DNA from: Clostridia bacterium
GTDB taxonomy: Bacteria; Bacillota; Clostridia; Oscillospirales; CAG-272
Length of the DNA stretch: 64,000 nucleotides
Direction: 5' to 3'
Assembly: GCA_017623355.1 (NCBI GenBank)
Contig: JAGAPG010000030.1
Location: 24,278 to 88,277 of the forward strand
Below the pieces are notes generated by a model. It searched no databases and was not told where the DNA came from. It saw only the letters and a list, made by a program, of their open reading frames with translations. Positions 32,107 through 51,975 of this stretch are shown here, piece after piece; the first letter of the stretch is position 1, and each line of letters opens with the position of its first letter. The translations under genes were made by a program, and so were the position numbers.

Positions 32107-35100
32107 ATGAAAAAGATATTATCACTAATGTTGATACTTCTTGCTTTTATGCTCGTGTTCGCATCGTGCGATCAGGAGGAGGATATTGATTTTGGCAACG
32201 ATGAGAGTGTAACATCCAATGATGATGAAACCTCGACCAAAGAGCCTGAAGAAACCTCTACCGATGACGAGACCTCTACAAAAGACGAGCCTGCAGGAGA
32301 CGAAACCTCTACGGATGAAAATACGGAGACGGTAGATCCCGAAAACTGTATTCACGAGTATGAGGAAGAATCAAGGACGGAGCCTAACTGTACAGAGGCG
32401 GGCGTGAAAGTAGAAAAATGTAAATATTGCGGAACAACAAGAGAAAGATCTATTGCTAAGCTCGGACACAATATGGGCACTCCTGAGGTTGTAGAGCCTA
32501 CCTGTAACAAGGCAGGATACACGGAGCGCGCTTGCACACGACCTGGATGTACATATGCTACGCAGACCAATCCTACTGTAGCAACGGGCAAGCACGCATA
32601 TTCAAAAAAATGGAGACGTAGCATAGAGCCGACATATTTTTGCCCCGGCGAGGAATATGTATATTGCACAAACGTAGGCTGTGACTCAAGACAAACAAGA
32701 GAGGTCGCTCCGCTTTATGATTTCTTTACGCTTGATATTGGCGCAAATAACGTTGATATTGACGGAGAGGACTACATAAATATTGCTAAATACGGCGTTT
32801 CGGAAGCAACGTCTTATTACAGAAAAACACTTCCTAAGCATCTTTTTGACGGCGACACGTCGTCTTATTGGAGCCCGGATACTCTCGTTGACGGAATAAG
32901 CTACACAGGCGATTACGCCGTACAGACTTTTGTTAAGGACTTTGAGATCAAGGAAATAAGATTATATGTTCCAAACTATCATGCTTGGGGACTTGAAGGA
33001 GTTAACGTTGAGTATCTCGTTCAGGCAGAGGACGAGGACGGTACTTGGATAACTCTCGGCACTGTAAACGATAAGGATTCCGGTGATGATACCAGTCAAA
33101 ATGTAACTGTCGTATTGTCGCTTGAGGATGCTATCGTTACAGATAAGATAAAAATTACGGTTACAGAAGCGTCAAGATATACTCCCGGTAAGATCTACGA
33201 GGTAGAGGTGTACGCTAAGGCTACTATCGGAGATAAGGATATCGTTGACGAGGAAGGTAACGTTGTCGGAACTGAAAAAGCTCCGATGATAAACAGAGTA
33301 GTAAAGAATATTGCAGGCACTGCAAGCGTAAGCGTAAGCGGTAAATACAACGATTACGGCGGAGGTGCTGCTGAGCTCGTTGACGGAAAAGATGGCACGA
33401 GCTGGATGACCAATGCAAGACTTTGGGACGATACAAGATTTGAGGTTGATTTTGGAGAAAACACCTTCAGAGAGATAAGCTCTATTTCGTTCGTTGCCGA
33501 TAAGTGTGTTGGCGAGAAATTCTATATCTATTATTACGGCGTGGCAAGCGGCTGGAACGGAGATAGCCTTGGCTGGAGAGCTATAGATGTAGATCCTAAT
33601 TCCGATAATCAATACTATGAAATAACAGAGGATTTTGAGGGAACTTATACCGTTACTTTTGAAAATCCCATAATTACAACAAAAATTCGTATAGAGGCTG
33701 AGGATTATAAGGCGGCTGACGATCTTACATCAGATATATCCACCGTTCCGCCTACTATGACACAGTTCTCATTCGTATATAAGGAAACAACTCTTGGCTC
33801 GTATGCTACGACCAAGGAGGAAACTGACGAAGAGGGCAACACCGTAACAGTTAACCTTGAAGCGGTTGATATTTTCAAAAATCAGCTTGCAGCTTTGACC
33901 GTTGCAGATGAGGAAAAAACACATAACATCGAAAAGGTGGAATGGCTTGAGGGACCGAGAACAATTGCTACATTCGAGTATACTACCGTTCAGTATATTG
34001 CATATATCAGATTTATATTTGCTAACGTTGACGGCAGAGATTTCTCGCTTCAGTATTGGGACGAGGAAAATGAATGTTGGGTAGAGTATATGATTATTGA
34101 AGGCGGTAAGAGCTCTGAAATAATCGACCTTGGCGTTAAGTGGAGAAAGTTCAGATTTGAGCTTATTTCCGAGCCGCAGTATTGGCTCTCGTTCGTTTAT
34201 GAGATTACGCCTTATACAATAGTAGAACAAACAACCGAAAATCTTGTAATCGAGAGCTGTGAGCATAAGGCTGCTAACAGCACATTGACAGAAAAGATAG
34301 CTCCTACCTGTGAAACCGCAGGATATTCTATCCTTCATTGTAAGTCGAAGGGCTGCACATACACTTGGAAAACAGATGCTCTTGATGCACTTGGACATAA
34401 CTATGTTGCAGATCAGTCAACCGCAGTTGCGGCAACCGCTGAACAAAACGGAACAGTTACAGCTAAGTGCTCAAAATGCTCGGACGAAAAAACCGTTACA
34501 ACAGAATATGCAACAGAGCTTGGTATTCTTAAGGCTCCCGAAATAACAACATATCTATATAACGCTCCCGGAGCTTGGAGTATGACATTTGACGACAGTA
34601 ACTATGTTGAAACATATAACTGGGTAGTTCCGCAGCTTCAAAAATACGGTTTCAAGGCTACTACGGTTATGACAATTGGTATGGCGGATTCGTTAGTTCC
34701 GTTATGGTCACAGTATTTCGCAACGGGCACATTTGACCTTGGATCACACTCCTATAACCATACCGGTATTTACAGTGGCGGTCTTCAGGAAGACAGCATA
34801 ATGTACGAGGTAAACGAGGCTCATTACAGATTCATGAATATGTTCCCGGGTCAGCAGGTTCTTGGATTTGCAACACCTAACGGAACGACGAGCAACTCTA
34901 CTGCTGTATTCGTATGCGATATTATGGCAGCAGGAAGAAACGGCGGTAACCTTGGAGCTTGGATAGATCCGGATGATCTTACATCAAGAGAGGCTTGGGG
35001 TAACCTTAATTCTTATATCTCAAAAACAGAGCAAACAGAAGGTAAGTATGAGTTTGTAAAGGCTTCCGAGGTTAAGAAGAATTATGTATACGATGCAAGC

Positions 35101-35790
35101 TCAAACAGAATGGTTGATGCTGTTGTGGCTCAGCTTTCTGTAACAGGTACTTATGTTCGTGAGCTGGTTGATGATGCTAACTTTGATGGCACATACTACA
35201 ACGAGTTGAACGGAGATCCTATTTACAGATACGTTTGGGTAGAAAACGGATCATATAGTTATATTGATGGCGAATATGTATTCCAGGAAAACAACGATGG
35301 AGAATATATTCTTGCTCATACTGAAATTGGATCTTACGAGAAAGGTGTGAATGAGCTTCTTAACGGAAAATCGGGCTCTGATCACGGATATTGGACGGTG
35401 GAATGTCTCCACACGATCGGTTCAGGACCTATGTATTCTACATTTACATCTACTATATCAAAGTTTGAAATATTCAAGAAAACAGGTATTTGGGTAGGCT
35501 CTTATACTGAGGTTGTTCAGTATCTCAAGGAAAGTCAAAGAGCAAGCATAGAATTTTCTGCAACAGCAGATTCTATTTCGTTTAACCTTACTGACACGCT
35601 TGACAATTCTCACTTTGATCAAAAGCTTACTGTAAAGGTTGATATTCCCGATGAATGGACAGCTATAACCGTAATGCAAAACGGCGTCGAGATTGGCGTT
35701 GATGTTGAAAAGGATGTATTTATTGAGAACGGATATGCTTACATAAGCGTAGTTCCCGATTGCGGAGAGGTAGTTATCACCGCTAAATAA
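32107..35790 (+). CDS. large lipoprotein: Cys-rich modules, discoidin/F5-8-type-C-like domains, NodB-type polysaccharide deacetylase domain
   Basis: Lipobox FASC and an acidic DETSTK linker. Cys modules at about aa 80-170 and 713-800. DGDTSSYW and IYEVEVYA suggest carbohydrate-binding beta-sandwiches. NodB motifs are TFDDS (nt ~34580) and HSYNH. Confidence 0.7.
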   Translation: MKKILSLMLILLAFMLVFASCDQEEDIDFGNDESVTSNDDETSTKEPEETSTDDETSTKDEPAGDETSTDENTETVDPENCIHEYEEESRTEPNCTEAGVKVEKCKYCGTTRERSIAKLGHNMGTPEVVEPTCNKAGYTERACTRPGCTYATQTNPTVATGKHAYSKKWRRSIEPTYFCPGEEYVYCTNVGCDSRQTREVAPLYDFFTLDIGANNVDIDGEDYINIAKYGVSEATSYYRKTLPKHLFDGDTSSYWSPDTLVDGISYTGDYAVQTFVKDFEIKEIRLYVPNYHAWGLEGVNVEYLVQAEDEDGTWITLGTVNDKDSGDDTSQNVTVVLSLEDAIVTDKIKITVTEASRYTPGKIYEVEVYAKATIGDKDIVDEEGNVVGTEKAPMINRVVKNIAGTASVSVSGKYNDYGGGAAELVDGKDGTSWMTNARLWDDTRFEVDFGENTFREISSISFVADKCVGEKFYIYYYGVASGWNGDSLGWRAIDVDPNSDNQYYEITEDFEGTYTVTFENPIITTKIRIEAEDYKAADDLTSDISTVPPTMTQFSFVYKETTLGSYATTKEETDEEGNTVTVNLEAVDIFKNQLAALTVADEEKTHNIEKVEWLEGPRTIATFEYTTVQYIAYIRFIFANVDGRDFSLQYWDEENECWVEYMIIEGGKSSEIIDLGVKWRKFRFELISEPQYWLSFVYEITPYTIVEQTTENLVIESCEHKAANSTLTEKIAPTCETAGYSILHCKSKGCTYTWKTDALDALGHNYVADQSTAVAATAEQNGTVTAKCSKCSDEKTVTTEYATELGILKAPEITTYLYNAPGAWSMTFDDSNYVETYNWVVPQLQKYGFKATTVMTIGMADSLVPLWSQYFATGTFDLGSHSYNHTGIYSGGLQEDSIMYEVNEAHYRFMNMFPGQQVLGFATPNGTTSNSTAVFVCDIMAAGRNGGNLGAWIDPDDLTSREAWGNLNSYISKTEQTEGKYEFVKASEVKKNYVYDASSNRMVDAVVAQLSVTGTYVRELVDDANFDGTYYNELNGDPIYRYVWVENGSYSYIDGEYVFQENNDGEYILAHTEIGSYEKGVNELLNGKSGSDHGYWTVECLHTIGSGPMYSTFTSTISKFEIFKKTGIWVGSYTEVVQYLKESQRASIEFSATADSISFNLTDTLDNSHFDQKLTVKVDIPDEWTAITVMQNGVEIGVDVEKDVFIENGYAYISVVPDCGEVVITAK

Positions 35791-36285: not shown

Positions 36286-36343
36286 ATATTATATATTTAT
36301 AGCAAAAATAATAAATATAATTATTACTCAAAGGAGAAAAGGT

Positions 36344-39247
36344 ATGGAATTTAGCGAAGCTATGAAGCCATATAGAAAAAGACTTATAATCGAAGCTATT
36401 ATAAGAGCCGTTGCATTCGGAATGTTATTCGGAATGGCTGGCACATTGCTTACAACGGTTATTATGAAAATAGCGTTCAGCATTGAAAATACACTTTTAG
36501 TGATTATAGTGTCCGCATCTGTTGGTGTTGCGATTGCCGCAACGATTGGAACGATAACATATATTCGTCGTTTCAAGGTTAACACAAGAAAATTGGCAAA
36601 AAGAATTGACTCCCTTGGACTTGACGAGCGTGTTGTAACAATGGTCGAATACAGAAAAGACCGTTCTTACGTTGCAAAGGTTCAAAGAGAGGATACGATG
36701 CAACGCCTTTCAAAGCTTGATATGAAGAAGCAATTCAAGATCAGGCTCCCCAAAAAATCACTTATATCCTGCGGAGCAATGCTCCTTGCAATTGTTATCT
36801 TGCTTACTCCCTTGGTGCAGACACCGGCTGCTATTGCGGCAGAGTGGAGACAGCAGGAGGCTGACGAAGCGGTAGATGAGATCATTGCAGACATTCACAA
36901 GATGATAGACCAGGCTGAGTTTGAGGATGATGTTGACGACTACTACGTAACAAAGGATCTCTTTGATAAGCTCATTGAGCAAGAGGAAGAAAACTTTGAA
37001 AGCTTCAAGGAAGAGCTCAAGGATATGGTTACCGTAGAGGGTGAGAAGATAAAGAGGAGCTCGCTTGACAGATCTCAAAAGGAGGATCAGGCGAATGCTT
37101 TGAGAGATAGAGTAAACGAATACATTACAGTACAGATAATGATTCAAAATATCTATCTTATAATAAACTCATCCGACACACCTCAAGAATTTCAAGAGAT
37201 GCTCTTTAATGACTATGTATTCCCGCTTGAGGAAAGAATCGAGCTTATGGACGATGCCCGTGAAAAATACGAGGACATAAGAGAGACCAGAAAAGAGATC
37301 GAGGAGCTTATCAAAAAAGAGATGGAGATCCAACAGGAGATCATCGATAAGATAGACCAGGACAGCAGCGAGGAGCTTAAGGAAGAGCTTGAGAAGGTTG
37401 AAAATGAAACCATTCAAGATATTCTTGATGCTATCCAAAAGGAAGATAAGGCTGAAATCGAAAATGCTTTTGAGGATCTTGAGCAAAAGCTCGACCAAAT
37501 GGTAGACCAAAACACCAAGGAAGATATTATGCAAGAGATAGAGGATATGCAACAGCAGATCCAAGATGCTCTTGATAAGGTTGAAGAGGATTCGATCCTT
37601 AAGGATGCATTTGAAGATTTCAATCAAAACCTTGAGGATATTCAGGATAAGATCGAGCAGACTGAAACTGATGAAAACGGTCAGATAAGCGAGGATCAAA
37701 AGGAAGAAATTAAGGAAACGATTGATACCGAGCTTGAGGACTCCAAGAGTGATTTCAACGAGGTTATTGACTTCGAGCAGAAGCTTGAGGACACCGAAAT
37801 GGGTGAGCTTGCTGATGCTATTGAAAGCGGAGATAAGGAAAAGATCGATGAAGCTCTCGATAATATGAAGAATGATATTCTCGATACAGATGCTTCAAGC
37901 CAAGAGAGAGAAGATATGATGCAAGACATCGTAGATGTTCTTGATAAGGTTCTTGACAGTGTTCCCGAATCAAATGTAGAAGACTCACTTAAGGATGCTC
38001 TTGAGGATTTCAAGGAAAATCTTGAGGGCGCAATTCAAGAAAAGCAAGAGGGCTCCGATACAGATAAAACTATTGAAGACGCTTTCGATCAAGCTAAGGA
38101 CGATATCTCCGATGCACTTGACAAAATGGAATCTATTGAAAACGTTGGTGAGCAGATCACAGATGCGATGGACAAAGCAGAATCCGAGCTCGCTCCCTTT
38201 GAGAAGGAAACAGACGATGCGATTGATGATATGAAGCAAACCATCGAGGATTCCGACGCAAGCGAGGAAGAAAAGGATGAAATGAAGGATGTCGTAAGCG
38301 ATCTTGAAAATAAGCTCGAGGACATCTATAGCGATCCCACAACATCTGACGAGGAAAAGAAGGAGCAGGTTAACGAGGCTCTTACAGATGCAAACAACAA
38401 GCTCGACCAGATGACTCAGGAGCAAGATTCCGATAAATCCGAGGTAAACGATGCTATCAAGGATAACGAGGACAAAAAAGAAGAATCTGATAAAAATCAG
38501 GATATGTCCGATCTTGGTGATGCAATCGAGAAGGACGATAAGGACCAGGTAAGCGACTCCATCGAAGATATGAAGGATAAGATCCAAAACGCCGAGGGAG
38601 AGGAGCTTGATAAGATCCTTAACGATATGGCTCAGGATTTCAAGGACACTGCAGATTCGTTACCCGAGGATAACGAATTCAAGGAAGATTTCCAGCAGAC
38701 AGGTGAAAAGCTTGAGGATATCGCAAATTCCGATATGACCGATGAAGAAAAGAAGGAACAGGCAAGTGACGCACTTGATCAGTTCCAGCAAAATATGAAT
38801 AATAAGCTCGAAAACATGGAGAAAAACGAGCAAACAGCTGAAGATCTTAAAGAGAGCATAAACCAAGCTCAAAACCAGATAAACAATCCTAATCAAGATA
38901 AGCAAGAGCCGTCTGATTCCGAGCAGAATCAAGAAAATCAGGATCAAGAAAATCAAGATCAGGAGAATCAAGACAGCAAGCCCAGTGATCAGGATAAACC
39001 ACCGGAAGAAAATAAGCCTCAAGAACCATCTGAGGAGGTTACCGACGGTATGGATAAGGTTGAGATAAACGGTTCTGTGTATAATCCGGAAACGAATAGA
39101 AATGAATCTATTACATCTCAGATTACACAGGAATATATCGATCAGCAGAAGAATCTCTTGCTTGATCCGTCAAATAATTTGACGCCCGCGCAAAGAGAGG
39201 CAATTCAGCAAATGATCGCTCTTTATGAAGCTCAATTGGCAAAATAA
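36344..39247 (+). CDS. membrane-anchored giant acidic coiled-coil protein (DUF4175-like by eye)
   Basis: Three N-terminal hydrophobic segments, then ~800 aa dominated by D/E/K/Q with heptad-like character and diverged ~75-aa repeats (xDAIExxDKxxI...). The start was moved from 36119 because the promoter lies inside that extension. Confidence 0.65.
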   Translation: MEFSEAMKPYRKRLIIEAIIRAVAFGMLFGMAGTLLTTVIMKIAFSIENTLLVIIVSASVGVAIAATIGTITYIRRFKVNTRKLAKRIDSLGLDERVVTMVEYRKDRSYVAKVQREDTMQRLSKLDMKKQFKIRLPKKSLISCGAMLLAIVILLTPLVQTPAAIAAEWRQQEADEAVDEIIADIHKMIDQAEFEDDVDDYYVTKDLFDKLIEQEEENFESFKEELKDMVTVEGEKIKRSSLDRSQKEDQANALRDRVNEYITVQIMIQNIYLIINSSDTPQEFQEMLFNDYVFPLEERIELMDDAREKYEDIRETRKEIEELIKKEMEIQQEIIDKIDQDSSEELKEELEKVENETIQDILDAIQKEDKAEIENAFEDLEQKLDQMVDQNTKEDIMQEIEDMQQQIQDALDKVEEDSILKDAFEDFNQNLEDIQDKIEQTETDENGQISEDQKEEIKETIDTELEDSKSDFNEVIDFEQKLEDTEMGELADAIESGDKEKIDEALDNMKNDILDTDASSQEREDMMQDIVDVLDKVLDSVPESNVEDSLKDALEDFKENLEGAIQEKQEGSDTDKTIEDAFDQAKDDISDALDKMESIENVGEQITDAMDKAESELAPFEKETDDAIDDMKQTIEDSDASEEEKDEMKDVVSDLENKLEDIYSDPTTSDEEKKEQVNEALTDANNKLDQMTQEQDSDKSEVNDAIKDNEDKKEESDKNQDMSDLGDAIEKDDKDQVSDSIEDMKDKIQNAEGEELDKILNDMAQDFKDTADSLPEDNEFKEDFQQTGEKLEDIANSDMTDEEKKEQASDALDQFQQNMNNKLENMEKNEQTAEDLKESINQAQNQINNPNQDKQEPSDSEQNQENQDQENQDQENQDSKPSDQDKPPEENKPQEPSEEVTDGMDKVEINGSVYNPETNRNESITSQITQEYIDQQKNLLLDPSNNLTPAQREAIQQMIALYEAQLAK
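38930..38974 (+). repeat. 15-bp x 3 in-frame microrepeat (QENQD x3)
   Basis: CAAGAAAATCAGGAT / CAAGAAAATCAAGAT / CAGGAGAATCAAGAC. Confidence 0.8.
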
Positions 39248-39287
39248 ACACTAAAATAAAAATTTGATGATATACGGAGATAGAGAC

Positions 39288-40886
39288 ATGGCATTTTTTA
39301 ATAGAAACAAAGAAAAAGAACAAGATAAGAAGGCATCTGCCGCAGTTAAACCTGCGGCAGATGCCTCTGCGCTTAAAAAAGACGCAAAGGTAGACCCTAA
39401 AGCTGCTCCTAAAGCAGAGGAAAAGAAGCCTGAGGTTAAGGTAGATCCCAAGGCTGCTCCTAAAGCAGAAGAGAAGAAGCCTGATGTTAAGGTAGATCCC
39501 AAGGCTGCTCCTAAAGCAGAAGAGAAGAAGCCTGATGTTAAGGTAGATCCCAAGGCTGCTCCTAAAGCAGAAGAAAAGAAGCCTGATGTTAAGGTAGATC
39601 CCAAGGCTGCTCCTAAAGCAGAGGAAAAGAAGCCTGAGGTTAAGGTAGATCCCAAGGCTGCTCCTAAAGCAGAGGAAAAGAAGCCTGAGGTTAAGGTAGA
39701 CCCCAAGGCTCCACCTAAAGCAGAAGAAAAGAAACCCGAGAGAACCGCAGAGGAACTCAAGGTAGATGCAGAAACAGAGAAGGAGCTCAAGCTCTTCGCT
39801 GAAAAATGCGCTAAGATCTTTACTGAGGTTAAAAAGGATATGATCGGTCAGGAGGAGGTAGTCGAATCTACTATCGCAGCTATTATAGCAGGCGGTAACG
39901 TACTTCTTGAGGGCGCACCGGGACTTGGTAAAACACGTCTTGTAAGATCACTTGGTAAGGTGTTTGATCTTCCATTCTCACGTATTCAGTTCACACCTGA
40001 CTTGATGCCTGCCGACGTAACAGGTACTAACATAATTAATAAGGATGAAAACGGAAACTCTGTATTTGAGTTCCAAAAGGGTCCTATCTTCAGTAACATA
40101 GTTCTCGCGGACGAAATTAACCGTGCAACGCCAAAAACACAGGCAGCTTTGCTTGAGGCGATGCAGGAGCATAAGGTTACTGTAATGGGCGTAACAAGAC
40201 AAATGGATGAGCCGTTCTTCGTTCTTGCTACACAGAACCCGATCGAGCAAGACGGTACATATCCTCTTCCTGAAGCTCAGATGGACCGTTTTATGTTCAA
40301 GATCATAGTTCCGAACCCCTCGGCAGACGAGCTCGGACAAATCGTTAATATGACACAGAAAACAATGGACGAAACCGCGCAGGCAGCTTGTAACGGCGAG
40401 GAGCTTCTCCGTATGAGAGCTATCGCTAAGACAATTCCTGTTTCAAGTGAAGTTCTTAAATATGCGATGGTAATGATTGCGGCAACTCATCCTGACAGTG
40501 AGGTTGCTACAGAAACAACCGTAAGATTTATTCGTGCAGGAGCCAGCCCTCGTGCTGCTCAGGCGCTTATCACGGCTGCAAAGGTAAGAGCTCTTATCAA
40601 CGGCAGATACAACGTATCCTATGATGATATCAATACTCTTGCAATTCCTGTACTCCGTCACAGAATCAAGCTTGGCTTTGAGGCTGTAACTTCAAAGATG
40701 AACGCAGACGATGTTGTTAAGAGCCTTATTAAGGATCTTAATACAAAGGGCAAGGATATAGCAGACAAGCATGCTGAAGAAAAATTCAAGCAAGAGGTTG
40801 CTATGGACAAGGCCGCTATGAAGGCTGCTATGAAGGCTGAAAAGGAAAAGAGCAAGTCAGATAAAAAGAAAAATTCAGATTGGTAA
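39288..40886 (+). CDS. MoxR-family AAA+ ATPase with an N-terminal tandem-repeat extension and a Lys-rich C-tail
   Basis: Walker A LLEGAPGLGKT, and Walker B/MoxR signature VLADEINRATPKTQAALLEAMQE. ATG 39288 is preferred; 39264 is possible. Confidence 0.85.
   Translation: MAFFNRNKEKEQDKKASAAVKPAADASALKKDAKVDPKAAPKAEEKKPEVKVDPKAAPKAEEKKPDVKVDPKAAPKAEEKKPDVKVDPKAAPKAEEKKPDVKVDPKAAPKAEEKKPEVKVDPKAAPKAEEKKPEVKVDPKAPPKAEEKKPERTAEELKVDAETEKELKLFAEKCAKIFTEVKKDMIGQEEVVESTIAAIIAGGNVLLEGAPGLGKTRLVRSLGKVFDLPFSRIQFTPDLMPADVTGTNIINKDENGNSVFEFQKGPIFSNIVLADEINRATPKTQAALLEAMQEHKVTVMGVTRQMDEPFFVLATQNPIEQDGTYPLPEAQMDRFMFKIIVPNPSADELGQIVNMTQKTMDETAQAACNGEELLRMRAIAKTIPVSSEVLKYAMVMIAATHPDSEVATETTVRFIRAGASPRAAQALITAAKVRALINGRYNVSYDDINTLAIPVLRHRIKLGFEAVTSKMNADDVVKSLIKDLNTKGKDIADKHAEEKFKQEVAMDKAAMKAAMKAEKEKSKSDKKKNSDW
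39387..39743 (+). repeat. 51-bp x 7 in-frame tandem repeat (KVDPKAAPKAEEKKP[ED]V)
   Basis: Seven near-identical 17-codon units, read directly from the sequence. The differences are mostly synonymous or E/D changes. Confidence 0.95.
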
Positions 40887-40901: not shown

Positions 40902-41801
40902 ATGAAACGTAAAATATTAGACGGCGACTTTTTGGACCGTCTGGACGCTGCCGCATTGTTACTCAAAAATCCGATGACAGGCTACTTCGGCGGAAGCCGA
41001 AAGGCACGCTCATACGGAAGCACGGTAGAGTTTGCCGACTTCCGCGAGTATTTTCCGGGAGATGATATCAGACGTATCGACTGGAACGTATACGCGCGTT
41101 TTGAAAAGTACTTTATAAAGCTTTTCACGGATGAAAGACAGATGCACAATCATATTATGATAGACTGCTCTGCATCAATGAAATGTGGCCGTCCTGAAAA
41201 AGCGGCAGCCGCGCTCAGAATAGCGGCAGCCTTCGGATATCTTTCGGTAACGGCTATGGACCGAGTTTCCTTCAAGATGCTTAAAGGCAATAAGGCGGAG
41301 GATATCGGCTTCACGGTATATAATAAGGATTCGTTTTACAGAGCCGCTCAAATTCTTGAAACAACAGAATTTGAGGGAGAAACTGATCTTGAAAAGACCG
41401 TGGTAGGTCTTGAGCAACCGGGATATGACGACGGTCTTACGATAATAATTTCCGACTTTTTGACGGAAAGCAACTGGAAAAAGATGCTCGACTTCTTGGT
41501 ATATAAGCGCAGAGAGGTTGTATTTATACAGGTACTCTCACCGGATGAGCTTTATCCGGGCTTTGACGGAAGAGTTCACATGGTGGACTCCGAGGCTGTT
41601 GGCTTTGACGATCCTAAGAATATGAGAGTCAGAGTTACGAGAAAGCTCGTTGAAGCATATCAAAGAGCGTTTGACGAATATGAGCAGGAGCTTATAGATT
41701 TTTGCGCCTCAAGAGACGCGACTTTCTTTACAGTTTCATCAGATGATCCGATAGAGAAAGTAATTTTTGGAAAGGGATACGAAACGGAATTGATCAAATG
41801 A
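40902..41801 (+). CDS. DUF58 domain protein (MoxR-associated)
   Basis: GGSRKARSYGSTVEFADFREYFPGDDIRRIDWNVYAR matches the DUF58 signature. A VWA-like IDCSASM follows. Confidence 0.85.
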   Translation: MKRKILDGDFLDRLDAAALLLKNPMTGYFGGSRKARSYGSTVEFADFREYFPGDDIRRIDWNVYARFEKYFIKLFTDERQMHNHIMIDCSASMKCGRPEKAAAALRIAAAFGYLSVTAMDRVSFKMLKGNKAEDIGFTVYNKDSFYRAAQILETTEFEGETDLEKTVVGLEQPGYDDGLTIIISDFLTESNWKKMLDFLVYKRREVVFIQVLSPDELYPGFDGRVHMVDSEAVGFDDPKNMRVRVTRKLVEAYQRAFDEYEQELIDFCASRDATFFTVSSDDPIEKVIFGKGYETELIK

Positions 41802-43789
41802 GTCTTGATTTCACAACTTATTGGGGATTGCTTGGATTATTGGCTATTCCGATACTTTTGCTCATATATTTTTTAAAGCAGAAGTATGTAGAAAAACCCG
41901 TATCCAGCACATTTATATGGAAAAAGAGTCTTAAATATGTTAAGACAAAAATTCCAATCAATATTATAGTTTCGCTCTTGCTTATTTTGCAAATATTATC
42001 AGTTATAGTTGCGAGTCTTGCACTTTGTCGTCCGACGCTTGTTGCGTTCAGCTCTGACGAGACGGTAATAGTAATAGACTCATCGGCAAGTATGCTTGCT
42101 AAAAACGATCAAGGCAAAACGCGCTTTGAGCTCGCTGTAGAGCAAGCGAAGAAGGATGCTGAAAAAGCGGGTCCAAACAGTAAGATAACTGTAATAACGG
42201 CAGGCGAGAAAGCGAATACAGTAGTATACAGAAGCGAGGATAAATCGCAGATAGTAAATGCTCTTGACAAGATCAAGTGCGAATATGGAAATGCTGATTT
42301 TGAAGAGGCAAAGCTTCTTGTTGCCGATGTTCAAAGTCAGAATAAGGAAACATCGGTAAAATATTATACAGACCAAACCTATGAAAGCGTAAATGGCTTT
42401 GAATACATAGATTTTTCAAAGGATAACGACTCCAATATTGCAATAACATCGTTAGAAGATGGAATGATAAAGGATGATTATGTGTTTACACTTGAGGTGT
42501 CAAACTACGGAAAGGCACTTGAAAAGGTAAAGATCAAGGCTGTTATAAACGACGGCAAGAAGGATCTTTGGTTTGAAGATACCTATAGCTTCGGCGAGTC
42601 GGAAACAAGAATGATATACGTTCGACCTAATATTTCTGCACTTGAGGAAGGTACAGGTCTTAAAATAGACTCCTTTGAGGAATATAAGAATGCGAAATTT
42701 GAAATTGTGGTAGATGACGCTATCGCAGAGGATAATGTAAGCTCGATATATCCGGAGGAGAAAAAAGATGTAAAAATACTTTACGTTAGTGAATACGTAC
42801 AGTATATAGAGGGAACAGAGAATACTGATGCTCCCGTAGTAAACGATAAGTTTATATGGATGCTCAGAATATTTGGATATCTTGGATATACGGTAGATAC
42901 TACATCCGATGTATACAAGAGCATAAATGATGTTCCGGACCTTGAGGGATATGATATTTATATCTTTGAGGGCGAAAGTAATATGCCGGAGATACTCCCC
43001 ACAGACGGCGCGGTATGGTTTATAAATCCAAAAACCAATCCCGTCGGAACTGATATCGAGATAGGCGACGAGCTTGAAGAGATGTTCGCATATCCCGTAA
43101 TTACTCCCGGCGACACAAATCCTGACACAGATACCTATGAAATTATAACAAACGGTATCAAGATGGACGGACAGTGGTATGTAGGTAAATATAAGAATAC
43201 GCCTGCAAATCTTCCCGATAAATACGAGGCAGTTTTCAAATGCGGAAATAATGCGCCTCTTATTATTGCGGGAATAGAAGAAGAAAACAATACCAGAGTA
43301 GTTGTTTTCACGTTTGATATTTATAACTCCAACCTTATAATGCAATTTGTGCTTTCGCCGGTTCTTTTCGATAATCTCGTTAAGTTCTCAGCGCCTGATT
43401 CTCTTGTATCAAGAGATTTTGTTGTAGGAGATGAGCTTGAGTTTAAGGTTCCCGTAGGCGGAACTGCGCTTGAGGTTCGTGATCCCAGCGATCAAATAAT
43501 ATATTCTACGGCAAACGCTTCGGAATATGTTCAAAAGCTCGATATGGTTGGCGATTATAAGATCACGGTAACATACGGAGAAAATGGAACGAAATCGTTT
43601 ATGGTTCCTGTTCACATCTCCGCAGAGGAAAGCGATATAAATATGAATGCGTATACAGAGGTGGTTCAATCTCCTCCCGCTACAGCTCCTATCGACCGTA
43701 GCCCGATAGAAATTTGGCCGTATCTTGTAGCACTCTTGCTTATCCTCTTGATAGTAGAATGGGGGGTATATTACAAAGATGAATTTTAA
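41798..43789 (+). CDS. BatA_N double-TM plus VWA domain membrane protein with a C-terminal TM
   Basis: The N-terminus LLGLLAIPILLLIYFLKQK...SSTFIWKK...LLILQILSVIVASLALCRP matches the aerotolerance-regulator N-domain pattern. MIDAS-like VIDSSAS. ATGA overlap with the DUF58 gene. Confidence 0.75.
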   Translation: MSLDFTTYWGLLGLLAIPILLLIYFLKQKYVEKPVSSTFIWKKSLKYVKTKIPINIIVSLLLILQILSVIVASLALCRPTLVAFSSDETVIVIDSSASMLAKNDQGKTRFELAVEQAKKDAEKAGPNSKITVITAGEKANTVVYRSEDKSQIVNALDKIKCEYGNADFEEAKLLVADVQSQNKETSVKYYTDQTYESVNGFEYIDFSKDNDSNIAITSLEDGMIKDDYVFTLEVSNYGKALEKVKIKAVINDGKKDLWFEDTYSFGESETRMIYVRPNISALEEGTGLKIDSFEEYKNAKFEIVVDDAIAEDNVSSIYPEEKKDVKILYVSEYVQYIEGTENTDAPVVNDKFIWMLRIFGYLGYTVDTTSDVYKSINDVPDLEGYDIYIFEGESNMPEILPTDGAVWFINPKTNPVGTDIEIGDELEEMFAYPVITPGDTNPDTDTYEIITNGIKMDGQWYVGKYKNTPANLPDKYEAVFKCGNNAPLIIAGIEEENNTRVVVFTFDIYNSNLIMQFVLSPVLFDNLVKFSAPDSLVSRDFVVGDELEFKVPVGGTALEVRDPSDQIIYSTANASEYVQKLDMVGDYKITVTYGENGTKSFMVPVHISAEESDINMNAYTEVVQSPPATAPIDRSPIEIWPYLVALLLILLIVEWGVYYKDEF

Positions 43790-46691
43790 TTTGGAAATAG
43801 CCCGTCCATGGATGTTCCTGGTAGCGATACCGTTTATAATCTTGGCGATAATTCCGTTTTTAAGACTTCGTAAGGGAAGAAAGCTTGCTGTTAAAAGAAT
43901 AGTTCCTCTTATTATAACGGTTTTGCTTATTGCTCTTATAGCAACTCTTCTTGCTGATATAACGATAGTTGAAACGACTGCAGCACCCGAGGAAACGGAT
44001 GTAGTTATTCTTGTTGATATGTCAGAGAGTAATGCTGCTATGAAGGATGAAATGAACGAATATATAAAATCGATCCATGAAGCGGCTGATGAGCATACCA
44101 AAATAGGTCTTATAGTATTTGCAGATAATACATATAAGATAAGCGATATAGAAAAGCCTGAGATCAAAAACGATTATCTTGATTTTGAGGACGGAGAAAT
44201 AGAGAAATCAAATACTGACATTGAGGAGGCTATTACCAAATCGGTAGAGCTCTTTAAGAATCAGTATGCTAATAAGCGCGTGCTTCTTATCTCTGACGGA
44301 AGAAACACGACGCAAACGAACCCTTGGGGAGCAGCAAGAACTCTTTATCAAAAGGGAATCACTCTTGATGCAAAATATTTTGATATAGTTGATTCCAATA
44401 ATAAAGAGGTTCAGATAACCTCACTTGTAGCTGAAACAAAGAATGATTCATCTAAAGAGGTTAATATAAGAGTTGAATTTATGAGCACCAAGGATGCCAT
44501 AGGCGACGTGCTTTTGTACGAGGTTAAGAAAACCGAGGACGGAAAGACCGAGGAAAAGCTCATAAAGAAGTTTGAAGATGTAAGATTTGAGGAAAACGAT
44601 ACCCAGGCTCTTACTTATGACGGATACGTTGCAAGCGGAGCAGGCATACATTCAATGTATGCAATCGTTGATCTTGCCGATGATACAATAGAGCAAAACA
44701 ATAAGCTGTATTCGTGGTTCCAAATACCCGGAGAAGCAAAAATGCTTATTATCGACGGTGATGACGGATCAAAGTTTACTCAAGCTGACAGAATTGCCGA
44801 AATGATTAAGCAAGAGGGCTATGAGGTAGATGTTCTTGAAACCTCAGACTTTCCTGAAACGATGGAGGAGCTTCTTGAATATGATCAAATAGCTCTTATG
44901 AATATCGATTTTACTGAGCTTCCCGCTAATGCAACGGATCATATCGAAAGATATGTTTCGGAGCTCGGCAGAGGACTTTTCTACAGCGCAGGCGGACATA
45001 GCTATGCTAACTCTGAATTTGCCGAAAACCCGATAGCAAGCATTTTGCCTATCGAGCTTAAAATTGAGGTAATTAAGGAAAAGGTAGCTACGGTTATAGC
45101 GGTTGACCTTTCTTCATCAATGGGTCAAAGCGTTGGTGAAACAAAGGCTAATGGCGAACAAAAGACACGTTACGATATGGTCCTTGAGGGAGTTATTGCT
45201 TGTATAGATCAAATGAACCCCGAGGATTACGTAGGCGTGGTAGTATTCTGGGGTAATGCTCCAAGCGATCCTGTAGTTCCTCTTACAGAGGTTGCAGAAA
45301 AGGAATGGATCAAGGAGCAGATAGAAACTAAGTTTGAAAGCTATTTCTATAAGCACGACTCTCAGGGAAATAGACTTACCGGCGGAAATCCTAAGGATGC
45401 AAACGGATATACGATAGGAGTACAGGGTACTAACTATACAAACGGTATCAATGCGGGTAAGAAATTGCTTTCCGAAACAGATGCAGAGCTTCGTCAGTTT
45501 ATATTTATTTCAGACGGTGAGCCTGCTGACTTGGATTCAGGTTACGATACAACTATTAAGGCGATGTATCGTTCCGGTATTTTGACATCAACCATCTGTA
45601 TAGGAAACGATTCATCTAATGCTATAAATGAGCTTAGACTTTTGGCGGATTACGGCGGAGGATCATTCAGATCTGTTACAACGACTCTTGATCTTAGCGG
45701 ATCACTTTTTGAATATGTAGAAAGTGTCGTTGGAGATTATGTAAACGAAAAGGAATTTCAACCGCATATTCAATCAAACGAATCGGCAATATTCCAAAAT
45801 GTATCGGTAGTTAATGCTCTTCCGACGCTTAACGGATATTACGGTACGACAGTAAAGGAAGGCGCTATGATGGTAATTTCTGCGGACGATAAGCACCGTC
45901 CGATAGTAGCTGAATGGCAGCCGACCGATACCAAGGGATATGTTACTGTATATATGAGTGACCTTAGTGAGCAAACTGACTGGTCGGAAAATTGGTATGA
46001 TGATCCCAATACAGCTATTCTTATAAAAAATATCGTAATGAACTCCTTTGTTGCGCTTGAAAAGGCAGTAGACAAGAGTGGACTTGAGGTAGAATCAGAA
46101 AGAACAGGCGATAAAACGACCGTTACAGTTGAAATGGTCAAGAGATTGCGCTATATAGATGACGCAAAGCAGGAAAAGCTTATTCTCGAATATATCGCTC
46201 CTGACGGAACAGTTCATACGACTGATGAAGCCGGAGATGAGCTTGAGCTTGCAGCCGTAGCTAATAAGAAATACAGAATAACTATAGATACTCCCGATCA
46301 GACGGGAATGTATAAAATAACAGTTAAGCTTGTCACAAACGACGGTAAAAATCAGCTTATTGATATAGCTCAATCTGCAGTCGTTGGCTTCTACGAGGAT
46401 GAATACGACGTGTTCAACCTTGAGAAGAATGAGAGCATAGGCGAGGATTTGCTTGTAAACCTTGCAAGAACAGGCGGAGGACAAATGATGGATGACGCAG
46501 AAGCCTTCTACGCCAACTTCAAAAAGCCTGACTTTGTTGAATATAAGCATTCACCTGTATATTGGCTTATTGCAGCTATAATTCTTCTTTTTGTGCTTGG
46601 AATAGTATTCCGCCATGTAAAGACGAGAAAGCAAAAGCAAGCAGAAGAAATGACGGACGAGGAGCAGATTCTTTCAATGCGCGGACGTTAA
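43779..46691 (+). CDS. large membrane protein with a BatA_N-like N-terminus, two VWA domains, a central amidotransferase-like region and a C-terminal TM
   Basis: MIDAS motifs VDMSES and VDLSSS, a central MLIIDGDDG block, and a C-terminal YWLIAAIILLFVLGIVF. 11-nt overlap with the upstream gene. Confidence 0.75.
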   Translation: MNFNLEIARPWMFLVAIPFIILAIIPFLRLRKGRKLAVKRIVPLIITVLLIALIATLLADITIVETTAAPEETDVVILVDMSESNAAMKDEMNEYIKSIHEAADEHTKIGLIVFADNTYKISDIEKPEIKNDYLDFEDGEIEKSNTDIEEAITKSVELFKNQYANKRVLLISDGRNTTQTNPWGAARTLYQKGITLDAKYFDIVDSNNKEVQITSLVAETKNDSSKEVNIRVEFMSTKDAIGDVLLYEVKKTEDGKTEEKLIKKFEDVRFEENDTQALTYDGYVASGAGIHSMYAIVDLADDTIEQNNKLYSWFQIPGEAKMLIIDGDDGSKFTQADRIAEMIKQEGYEVDVLETSDFPETMEELLEYDQIALMNIDFTELPANATDHIERYVSELGRGLFYSAGGHSYANSEFAENPIASILPIELKIEVIKEKVATVIAVDLSSSMGQSVGETKANGEQKTRYDMVLEGVIACIDQMNPEDYVGVVVFWGNAPSDPVVPLTEVAEKEWIKEQIETKFESYFYKHDSQGNRLTGGNPKDANGYTIGVQGTNYTNGINAGKKLLSETDAELRQFIFISDGEPADLDSGYDTTIKAMYRSGILTSTICIGNDSSNAINELRLLADYGGGSFRSVTTTLDLSGSLFEYVESVVGDYVNEKEFQPHIQSNESAIFQNVSVVNALPTLNGYYGTTVKEGAMMVISADDKHRPIVAEWQPTDTKGYVTVYMSDLSEQTDWSENWYDDPNTAILIKNIVMNSFVALEKAVDKSGLEVESERTGDKTTVTVEMVKRLRYIDDAKQEKLILEYIAPDGTVHTTDEAGDELELAAVANKKYRITIDTPDQTGMYKITVKLVTNDGKNQLIDIAQSAVVGFYEDEYDVFNLEKNESIGEDLLVNLARTGGGQMMDDAEAFYANFKKPDFVEYKHSPVYWLIAAIILLFVLGIVFRHVKTRKQKQAEEMTDEEQILSMRGR

Positions 46692-50643: not shown

Positions 50644-51975
50644 TCATATTTCATCAACGTTATCAAGCTCTAAAAGACTTTTAGCCTCGTCATCGTCAAG
50701 ATACGTGATGTTTTTCAGCTTTCTGTTTATTGCGTTCGTCCTTGTGCCGACAAGTGTTGAGATTTCGTTGCTTGCCTCATCGACCTTTTTCTGCGCCTTT
50801 TGAAGAACTCCTGCGAACTTTTCAAATTCTGTCTTCACAGCGGAGAGCAAGGTGAAAACCTCGCTTGAATGTTTTTGTATTTCAAGTGACTTGAAGCCCA
50901 TTTGAAGTGAGTTGAGAAGCGCGGTAAGCGTTGACGGCCCGGCGATTGATATCTTGAATTCGCGCTGAAGCTCCTCGAAAAGCCCCATATCTATTGCTTC
51001 TATGTAAAGACCCTCAATAGGCAAAAACATTATTGCAAAATCCGTTGTGTTCGGAGGATCTATATATTTTTTTGAAATATCCTTTGCATAAGTCTTTAAC
51101 TTTTGACGAAGCTCCTTTTTTGCCTCGGAAAGCGCATTTTTGTCGCAGTTATCAACAGCATCCTTAATCTTGTAATAGGTTTCAAGCGGGAACTTTGAGT
51201 CAACGGGAAGATATACATATCCGTCATCCTTACCGGGCATCTTGATAGCGAATTCAACAGGATCAGCCGAGCCCTTTCTTGTAACAACATTTTCGTCATA
51301 TTGAGCTTTAGTAAGTATCTCTGAAATGATATTTCCGAGTATCACCTCGCCAACGATACCCTTTGTTTTTACGTTGGTAAGAACTCTGTTAAGAGAGCCG
51401 ACGTCATTAGCAAGTCCCTTTATCTCGCCAATAGTTTTATTAACCTCGCCAATCTGCTTTATAACGTTTTCAAACGAATCCTTTAAGCGCGTGGAGAGTG
51501 TTTGATCGAGCTTTTCATCAACTGTCTTTTGAATACTTTCAAGCTTTTCCGAGTTTTCGCGTCTTAGCTCGGAAAGCTTCAGATCGACTGCTTTTTGAAT
51601 ATTTTCAAGCTTTTCATTTACCGTTTTTTGAACCGTATCGAGCTTTTCCGAGTTTTCACGTCTTAGCTCGGAGAGATTTTTTTCGACAGAGGAGTTCATA
51701 TCGGTAAGCTTGTCCGACAATATTTTTGAAAAATCCTCAAGAGTTATCTTTAAATGCTTTATTTCACTTTCTACTTTTTCAAGGAAAGCGGAATTATTTT
51801 CTTTTAAAGCGTTCAACATATGCGGACTCATCTCTGCAAATGCACCTGAAACAGATTTTCGTATATCCTCGGTGCTTGATTGAGAGGAATCCTTTTTTAT
51901 AAATGATCTCGCAAGCAAAACGCCAACAAGAGAAATTAAGATTATAAGTAAAATAATCGCGATAATATCGAGCAT
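50644..51975 (-). CDS. rmuC: DNA recombination protein RmuC
   Basis: N-terminal TM, a long coiled coil, and a C-terminal nuclease-like domain (FAIMFLPIEGLY). Confidence 0.8.
   Translation of the reverse strand: MLDIIAIILLIILISLVGVLLARSFIKKDSSQSSTEDIRKSVSGAFAEMSPHMLNALKENNSAFLEKVESEIKHLKITLEDFSKILSDKLTDMNSSVEKNLSELRRENSEKLDTVQKTVNEKLENIQKAVDLKLSELRRENSEKLESIQKTVDEKLDQTLSTRLKDSFENVIKQIGEVNKTIGEIKGLANDVGSLNRVLTNVKTKGIVGEVILGNIISEILTKAQYDENVVTRKGSADPVEFAIKMPGKDDGYVYLPVDSKFPLETYYKIKDAVDNCDKNALSEAKKELRQKLKTYAKDISKKYIDPPNTTDFAIMFLPIEGLYIEAIDMGLFEELQREFKISIAGPSTLTALLNSLQMGFKSLEIQKHSSEVFTLLSAVKTEFEKFAGVLQKAQKKVDEASNEISTLVGTRTNAINRKLKNITYLDDDEAKSLLELDNVDEI

Follow-up and report, generated by a model that had tools for sequence, protein, structure and literature searches.

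A hypervariable low-complexity arm with a candidate docking tip on the MoxR ATPases of a clade of gut Clostridia

The MoxR gene and its N-terminal repeat array

We analyzed a stretch of 64,000 nucleotides (the window) from the metagenome-assembled genome (MAG) of an uncultured gut Clostridia bacterium (GenBank assembly GCA_017623355.1, contig JAGAPG010000030.1, positions 24,278 to 88,277 of the forward strand). The window contains a gene for a MoxR-family AAA+ ATPase (39288–40886, forward strand, 532 aa plus stop), whose product begins with a long low-complexity arm. Most of this arm is encoded by seven tandem units of 51 bp (39387–39743). The arm, its repeats and its possible function are the subject of this report.

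The gene itself is an ordinary MoxR on all the criteria that could be tested. Pfam assigned an AAA_3 ATPase domain to residues 205–337 (39900–40298; 209 bits against a cut-off of 27) and an AAA_lid_2 domain to residues 415–478 (40530–40721; 60 bits). The Walker A motif GAPGLGKT lies at 39912–39935, and the Walker B motif is found in …VLADEINR. Residues 164–485 matched residues 9–327 of PDB entry 2R44, chain A (E=4.9e-72). The conserved core starts with residues 153–204 (TAEELKVDAETEKELKLFAEKCAKIF…GQ; 39744–39899), which include a pre-AAA helix kept in all homologues; D160, L167, F170, K173 and C174 of this helix are invariant in the homologue alignment. At the other end, a K/A/E-rich tail (residues 486–532; 40743–40883) extends about 45 aa beyond the 2R44-like core. 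It contains 2.6 copies of a 12-bp repeat (40809–40839, encoding AAMKAAMKA) and ends in KKKNSDW. AlphaFold drew this C-terminal tail of the window species as one long helix, and one relative (P0003) has an even longer tail with a repeat of its own.

Three segments make up the arm. The first is the tip motif MAFFNRNK (residues 1–8; 39288–39311), which holds the only aromatic residues of the arm. It is followed by a non-repeated leader (residues 9–33, EKEQDKKASAAVKPAADASALKKDA; 39312–39386) with an ASAxxxPAADASA stretch common to several relatives, and then by the array proper (residues 34–152), seven units of 17 aa of the form KVDPKAAPKAEEKKP[E/D]V. Tandem Repeats Finder reported the array at 39387–39740 with a period of 51, 6.9 copies, 95% matches, no indels and a score of 596, by a wide margin the strongest tandem repeat of the window (the runner-up scored 210). 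Seven copies of a 32-nt core of the unit lie at an exact spacing of 51 nt, whereas 100 shuffles contained none.

Cut in frame, the units read KVDPKAAPKAEEKKPEV, then three units ending in ..PDV, two ending in ..PEV, and KVDPKAPPKAEEKKPER, with the order E,D,D,D,E,E at the E/D position of units 1 to 6. The seventh and last unit is decayed (A to P and V to R, reading …APPKAEEKKPER). Unit 2 equals unit 3 and unit 5 equals unit 6, resulting in exact duplications of 102 bp. Six columns vary among units 1 to 6, all of them third codon positions; five of these changes are synonymous and one exchanges E and D. The preliminary description of this stretch had reported seven in-frame 51-bp units with PEVK or PDVK at their junctions, placed directly before the AAA+ core, and our analysis agrees on all these points. 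Its estimate of a 120-aa extension suits the array, which encodes 119 aa; counted in full, the N-terminal arm outside the core has about 152 aa (residues 1–152).

Translation of the arm

An exact-sequence look-up found the window MoxR to be identical to MBO5212993.1 (“MAG: AAA family ATPase [Clostridia bacterium]”), which was deposited with the ATG at 39288 as its start. A Shine-Dalgarno-like GGAG, read from the sequence, lies 7 nt upstream of this ATG (39277–39280), and the upstream gene stops at 39247, leaving an intergenic gap of 40 nt. We regard ATG 39288 as the likely start of the gene. The array is in frame within the ORF 39264–40886, and the sense frame stays open, with no stop, from the ATG through the arm into the AAA_3 domain. 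In four relatives, one of them a 774-aa form, the arm likewise starts 36–90 nt after the upstream gene, and arms whose sequences are unrelated, the longest of 454 aa, are all open in frame. As far as sequences can tell, the evidence says that the arm is translated as part of MoxR.

The alternative is that the arm is untranslated, the true start lying downstream and the repeats being a 5’ leader or intergenic DNA that is open by chance. We consider this extremely improbable. Two kinds of database entry in the same 90% cluster would speak for it, of 348 aa (MIGQ…; P0273) and 376 aa (MKVDAETEK…; P0272, MBQ8164094.1), which start at internal methionines; there is also an AGGA just before the ATG at 39837. 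However, the 348-aa entries stem from scaffolds with a gap of about 100 N inside the array (N runs at 2539–2677 in L166 and 2700–2799 in L167), and this gap forced the gene caller downstream. We therefore treat the shorter database entries as artefacts or as alternative calls of the start: the array breaks short-read assemblies, and such proteins could wrongly pass for evidence of a downstream start. The sole later in-frame start in the window is the methionine of KKDMIGQ, inside the conserved helix. This residue is isoleucine in most homologues, and starting there would remove the invariant helix at residues 160–183. Relatives with unrelated arms of up to 454 aa keep the frame open from a start shortly after the upstream gene, and the N-terminal motif described below is conserved at the protein level, both of which argue against a downstream start.

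On the reverse strand, the low-complexity arm is spanned exactly by a 179-aa ORF (39251–39790, …GFFSSALGAALGSTLTS… repeated), which the preliminary description had already put down to the repeat; it is no gene but a by-product of the arm. Calculated from the coordinates, its wobble positions fall where the sense frame has its own, and it too is built of identical repeat units. For this reason the bias towards third codon positions is unable to separate the strands, and we rejected it as proof of the coding strand.

Copy-number turnover of the array

Genome L001, with a flanking identity of 95.6–97.3%, has six units where the window has seven, and these include two KIDP variants. One column of the unit is T in 7/7 window units and A in 6/6 L001 units, and a second is A in 7/7 window units and G in 5/6 L001 units. 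Accordingly, the mean distance between units is 2.7 and 2.6 within the two arrays (window and L001, respectively) and 4.7 between them. Such array-wide fixed differences, together with these distances, are what the recent expansion or concerted evolution proposed in the preliminary description would leave, and the near-identity of the units reflects their recent turnover and concerted evolution.

Alleles with 7, 6, 4 and 2 units, all in frame and from conspecific assemblies, fall into one 90% cluster. Whole-unit length series were also found elsewhere: in a sister species with proteins of 463, 499 and 517 aa (18-aa unit), and in another species with proteins of 570 and 586 aa (8-aa unit). Read from these assemblies, the arrays change between strains by in-frame gain and loss of units and by homogenisation within the array. 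Differences in copy number among assemblies had been foreseen, and they are there, although the exact counts, obtained from short reads, are unreliable. The array is longer than short reads, and the assemblies break in it (two scaffolds of the same species are gapped inside the array), so this applies to the seven units of the window as well.

A stronger form of this concern is that the count of seven and the differences between strains are largely artefacts of short-read assembly, the array being real and its polymorphism overstated. We deem this possible, but lean against it. The N gaps in the two scaffolds fit such an explanation, as do the 102-bp exact duplications of units 2 and 3 and of units 5 and 6; moreover, the 2-unit allele, on a k141 contig, consists of exactly unit 1 and unit 7, as one would expect after a collapse. 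Collapse could not, however, generate the 6-unit array of L001, with its own two KIDP variants and its array-wide fixed differences. Further, the partly resolved scaffolds show an E,D,D,E… order and a unit with a K to N change, unlike the window, and the whole-unit length series come from two other species with different units.

The unit of 51 bp corresponds to 17 codons, so that a change in copy number alters length and not expression. A phase-variable contingency locus would be recognized by a unit not divisible by three or by a location in a promoter, and the array has neither feature. The repeat itself is ordinary coding biology of a variable-number tandem repeat.

Composition of the arm

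The arm consists of P (15%), K+R (29%), D+E (22%) and A (19%), about 50% of its residues being charged. The only hydrophobic residues before L157 are M1, F3, F4 and L29, and prolines recur every 4–7 residues. In the charge-hydropathy analysis the arm falls on the disordered side (mean hydropathy 0.343, boundary 0.439), and the core on the folded side (0.487, boundary 0.421). By its composition the arm is a proline-punctuated polyampholyte, predicted to be intrinsically disordered and extended, and with such spacing of prolines the window arm cannot be a long helix. We also ran AlphaFold2 twice, on the window protein with 27 homologues and on a short-armed homologue with 48. In both runs the arm was drawn as coil at a pLDDT of about 30–37, in models that are poor overall (mean pLDDT 50.9 and 55.0, with even the AAA+ fold poorly modelled) and thus lend weak support.

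Binding of DNA or another polyanion by this lysine-rich arm was considered and rejected, since the net charge per residue is +0.06 in the window and negative in many relatives. We then searched the arm alone against Pfam (E<=10). Only QPE and MRP_L53 were reported, with no match to PEVK/PPAK, TonB or E2-linker families, and the MRP_L53 match was weak and below its cut-off. QPE (PF18874) reached 29.0 bits over six stretches with the arm alone, against a cut-off of 25, and 20.9 bits with the full protein, below the cut-off. In NCBIfam the arm had a very weak match to the proline-rich segment of pneumococcal PspC (21 bits, cut-off 500). The resemblances to QPE and PspC are compositional, and the same applies to the likeness to PEVK, which the preliminary description had offered as an analogy only. 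Reading by eye, we found neither a hydrophobic signal-peptide core in MAFFNRNKEKEQDKK nor an LPXTG motif in the protein, which suggests that the arm is cytoplasmic.

Arms across MoxR relatives

We next compared the 120 closest database matches, whose best local alignments show 70–95% identity. Of these, 119 have an N-terminal arm of low complexity, 35–454 aa in length (median 76). A, K, E/D, P and V dominate the composition of the arms, the charge is near neutral, and the hydrophobic content is 3–14%. Their repeat periods range from 4 to 29 aa and their units are unrelated in sequence: the 17-aa unit was seen only in the window’s species, and the sister species has the 18-aa unit mentioned above. 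A neighbour-joining tree built from the core alone groups the arm-bearing proteins into a single clade. Outside this clade, relatives at 67–74% identity (Christensenella-like and other gut Clostridia MAGs) start 44–48 aa before LLEG, as ordinary MoxR proteins, and 2R44 has only 8 residues before the core, its residue 9 aligning to residue 164 of the query.

The preliminary description had called the arm atypical. This is correct with respect to MoxR at large, as seen from 2R44 and from the relatives at 67–74% identity; within its own lineage the arm is instead the routine feature that the same description had named as the alternative. Set against the family the arm is thus unusual; in its clade it is universal, and its sequence is specific to the species.

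In one group of relatives (P0028–P0048; for example P0039, L164 5001–7325) the arms reach 370–454 aa and consist of E/R/K/A-rich 13-aa repeats (…AERIAREEAEKAEAERIAREEAE…). These long arms contain an internal MAKFKKK, which is the N-terminus of shorter relatives. In P0004, a protein of the arm-less type (454 aa, on a 1.8-kb contig), about 100 aa of the AAA+ domain are repeated internally in tandem (KDENGNSSFQFQPGPVFANI… twice), probably reflecting misassembly.

In a wider sample, the 150 nearest 50%-identity cluster representatives, the MoxR core lies at least 100 aa from the N-terminus in about 23, so that N-terminal additions to MoxR are not rare. Many of these are FHA fusions (of ten N-extended representatives tested, five had an FHA domain and one an ABC_tran domain), and a few extensions are of low complexity. 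The domain-less ones (P0160, P0170 and P0250) had neither the tip motif nor near-perfect tandem units. A further match among the representatives, P0121 (916 aa), carries FHA and two complete tandem MoxR modules in one protein.

The main rival to a functional reading of the arm is neutral growth of low-complexity sequence: a functionless, slippage-prone arm would simply be tolerated at a solvent-facing MoxR N-terminus. We regard this as unlikely. It would explain a spacer whose sequence, period (4–29 aa) and length (35–454 aa) are all unconstrained, and tip-less low-complexity N-extensions do occur sporadically in other MoxR lineages. Under this explanation, however, one would anticipate neither that every clade member has kept an arm (the shortest of the 119 measures 35 aa) nor that its composition is tightly held, with linkers that are on average 2.5% hydrophobic and have a net charge near neutral.

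A short motif at the tip of N-terminal arms and C-terminal tails

The N-terminal consensus of the arm clade is M-G-L-F-N-K-K, compared with MAFFNRNK in the window. Its strict form was counted in 72 of 131 arm-bearing proteins, against 0 of 799 background ORFs from the same loci. A scan of metagenome contigs returned almost only arm-less relatives, and it was there that a second motif, at the opposite terminus, was revealed. About half of the arm-less sister clade (L006–L137) carry a variable, A/E/P/K/T-rich low-complexity tail of 20–80 aa at the C-terminus, which ends in …KK[KR]GLFGRK, KRKLFGRK or KRKFFGRK (e.g. …KKRGLFGRK). The strict C-terminal motif was found in 24/69 tail-bearing proteins, and again in 0/799 of the background ORFs; a looser pattern matched 44/61 unique termini. 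None of 52 tail-less C-termini had [LFIG]F in the last 8 residues. These tail-less relatives end in …KKYKxKK or …KR/TFKxxxK directly after the core.

In both kinds of extension hydrophobic residues are concentrated at the tip. Their fraction is 0.22 in the tip and 0.025 in the linker of N-terminal arms (about 10-fold), and 0.16 and 0.038, respectively, in C-terminal tails (about 4-fold). Several proteins of the arm clade also keep …LFDKKKK directly at the C-terminus. Among the remaining ORFs at the sampled loci, no convincing instance of the tip motif was found.

These observations bear on neutral growth. Under it, the conserved first residues would be due to constraints on translation initiation or N-terminal processing, and not to docking. 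The occurrence of a similar tip at the opposite terminus in the sister clade, with no instance in the 799 background ORFs, speaks against neutral growth.

The operon and other features of the window

The MoxR gene is part of an operon with the order TM-protein (transmembrane), MoxR, DUF58, BatA-VWA and VWA, all on the forward strand. The first gene (36341–39247) encodes a protein of 968 aa that has 3–4 TM segments at its N-terminus and, after them, a long hyper-acidic region of low complexity (D+E = 0.28); it had no family match in Pfam or NCBIfam. Within this gene lies a 15-bp repeat of 3.1 copies (38928–38973). Downstream of MoxR are the DUF58 protein, its usual partner (40902–41801; Pfam, 108 bits), a membrane protein with a BatA N-terminal domain and VWA_2 (41798–43789; 38.5 and 48.9 bits, respectively), and a 970-aa membrane protein with two VWA_2 stretches (43779–46691; 65.5 bits). 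Relatives have the same gene order, including the upstream TM/acidic protein.

The upstream acidic protein measures about 950–1070 aa in the arm-bearing clade (L001–L005, L162–L165) and 333–461 aa in the arm-less sister clade (L006–L056). Low-complexity regions have thus expanded in two adjacent genes of one lineage, about 3-fold in the case of the acidic region. This is a point in favor of neutral growth of the arm, because it suggests a propensity for low complexity across the lineage. Among the compared relatives we did not detect any co-variation between arm length and the size of the acidic protein; for instance, a 387-aa MoxR sits beside a neighbour of 1040 aa, and a 774-aa MoxR beside one of 1008 aa. 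From the TM segments and the positive-inside pattern, the acidic region is probably extracytoplasmic. A direct contact between arm and acidic region had been a candidate mechanism, and we dropped it on account of this probable location and the lack of co-variation.

Further upstream, in relatives as well as in the window, a 1227-aa protein (32107–35790, forward strand) combines F5/8 type C and polysaccharide deacetylase domains, and has an imperfect 18-bp repeat of 3.8 copies near its N-terminus (32254–32318). Elsewhere in the window, the ORF 50644–51975 on the reverse strand encodes an RmuC-family protein (Pfam RmuC, 238 bits), whose helix-rich N-terminal part contains a 99-bp tandem repeat (51509–51711, 2.1 copies, 73% matches, score 210). 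An Rfam scan of the whole window gave no matches.

A possible tether and its alternatives

What is conserved in these proteins seems to be the architecture, that is, a tip, a hydrophilic spacer and an AAA+ ring, and not the sequence of the spacer. From this conserved architecture, and from the C-terminal tip of the sister clade, we infer that the arm may be a hypervariable, flexible leash of adjustable length with a docking tip, a reading to which we assign an even chance of being right. In the proposed mechanism, a short hydrophobic-plus-basic tip would be followed by a hydrophilic spacer of free sequence and length, and then by the AAA+ core, and the module could be placed at either terminus. 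The tip would dock weakly onto the cytoplasmic face of the membrane or onto a membrane-bound operon partner, these being presumed targets. A tether to membrane partners had been suggested in the preliminary description; we find it plausible, and the conserved tip lends it indirect support. A hexamer would present six tips, and docking would consequently be strong only in the assembled ring. Since the unit is a multiple of three, the number of repeats would tune the reach of the leash, without on/off switching.

Several observations weigh against the leash. Starts of the form M[GA][LIFM][FLI] are absent from 27/64 unique N-termini of the arm clade (MDTNETNG…, MENLENK…), and the tip of the window itself, AFF-N-R-N-K, is a divergent version. 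The resemblance between the N- and C-terminal motifs amounts to 3–4 residues in two clades, effectively two evolutionary events. The length of the arm varies 13-fold with no detectable correlate, the upstream partner being about 950–1070 aa regardless, which fits weak or absent selection on length, and the short-read assemblies behind the copy numbers demonstrably break in the array. Finally, the MoxR tips are not amphipathic helices. Each has only two hydrophobic residues, and their helical hydrophobic moments are 0.09–0.31, compared with 0.45 for the membrane-targeting sequence of MinD (the linker background is 0.25 +/- 0.14). A MinD-like amphipathic helix was consequently rejected for the tip, and MinD is kept only as a functional analogy. 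Given this failed test, a protein docking site is at least as likely a target as lipid.

It is also conceivable that the arm is functional without being a tether, serving as an entropic bristle or solubiliser, as an autoregulatory tail, or as a tag for degradation or recognition. In the autoregulatory version, the hydrophobic tip would be engaged by the pore of its own ring or by an adjacent subunit. A tail that is disordered and ends in a hydrophobic dipeptide would suit such a role: the pore loops of AAA+ proteins grip hydrophobic and aromatic residues of unstructured tails, and the tips, as poor amphipathic helices, do not favor direct binding to lipid. On the other hand, the tip was not docked on the core in either AlphaFold run (both models being of low quality), and arms of more than 400 aa with ER/K-like composition resemble spacers and not tags. 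We judge this family of explanations decidedly unlikely.

The leash reading can be extended to a portable “sticky tip on a leash”: a GLF-plus-basic tip on a hypervariable spacer of 35–454 aa (rich in Pro, rich in Ala/Pro, or possibly an ER/K single helix), a module that would have switched from the C- to the N-terminus. Six such leashes per hexamer would set the reach of the ring from its anchor on the membrane or on a partner, and gain and loss of repeats at the level of strains would tune it. We put this extension forward as a doubtful one.

Operons of the MoxR-DUF58-VWA (“Bat-like”) type are widespread and their mechanism is poorly understood; in particular, it is a question how the soluble ATPase finds its membrane-bound partners. 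If true, the leash module would be the first mechanism of localisation or reach-setting proposed for these systems. The pattern of a tip on a leash, and its switch between N- and C-terminus from one clade to the other, offer a testable lead on MoxR localisation. The series of arm lengths from 35 to 454 aa, the terminal motif shared by many members, and the motif at the opposite end in the sister clade constitute a ready-made set of variants for tethering tests.

Comparison with known systems

Extended or elastic low-complexity spacers are known from titin PEVK, from the proline-rich spacer of TonB, and from the Ala/Pro-rich swinging-arm linkers of the E2 subunits of 2-oxo-acid dehydrogenases. 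Like the MoxR arm, these are rich in Pro, Glu, Lys and Ala, poor in hydrophobic residues and built from repeats, and by likeness the arm is presumed to be a flexible or semi-rigid connector. The arm differs in sitting at the N-terminus of an AAA+ ring, and the likeness is one of analogy only.

For the tip, the closest parallel is the membrane-targeting sequence of MinD, KGFLKRLFGG (PMC5471200). A single copy of it binds too weakly and dimerisation is needed, and it can be transplanted as a module (PMC8155659). Like the MoxR tips, the peptide is short, terminal and made up of basic residues plus Leu/Phe, and it shares the pattern [KR][KR]xLFG with the tips of the sister clade. In contrast to MinD, the MoxR tips are found at the end of long spacers, N-terminal in the arm clade; there is no homology, and membrane binding by MoxR is only an analogy.

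ER/K single alpha-helices (SAH) act as a bridge between a pair of functional domains (PMC4183817, PMC5347031). Several members of the clade have E/R/K/A-rich repeats of 13 to 29 aa, in arms of up to 454 aa, and some of these arms are probably SAH-like by composition. The window arm, with a proline every 4–7 residues, does not have the long stretch free of Pro and Gly that characterizes such helices. Among the stalk domains of fibrillar adhesins, QPE is one that has been listed (PMC8286594). The window arm differs from QPE and PspC surface proteins in being probably cytoplasmic, the likeness lying in composition. Other N-extended MoxR proteins, such as FHA-MoxR and ABC_tran-MoxR, mostly carry a folded domain, unlike the window arm.

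The nearest known system is the canonical MoxR of the MRP type, with PDB 2R44 (331 aa) as the only solved relative. The AAA_3 plus AAA_lid_2 core aligns with it end to end, the Walker A and B motifs are present, and so are the operon genes for DUF58, BatA-VWA and VWA proteins. Compared with 2R44, the window protein has about 155 extra low-complexity residues at the N-terminus and about 45 at the C-terminus, and compared with the canonical operon, the Clostridia operon has a conserved extra TM/acidic protein upstream. In the literature on N-terminal extension or disorder of MoxR, and on MoxR with DUF58, VWA and BatA, we did not find such arms described. The arm-plus-tip module is new on an otherwise ordinary MoxR, and is not a new kind of system.

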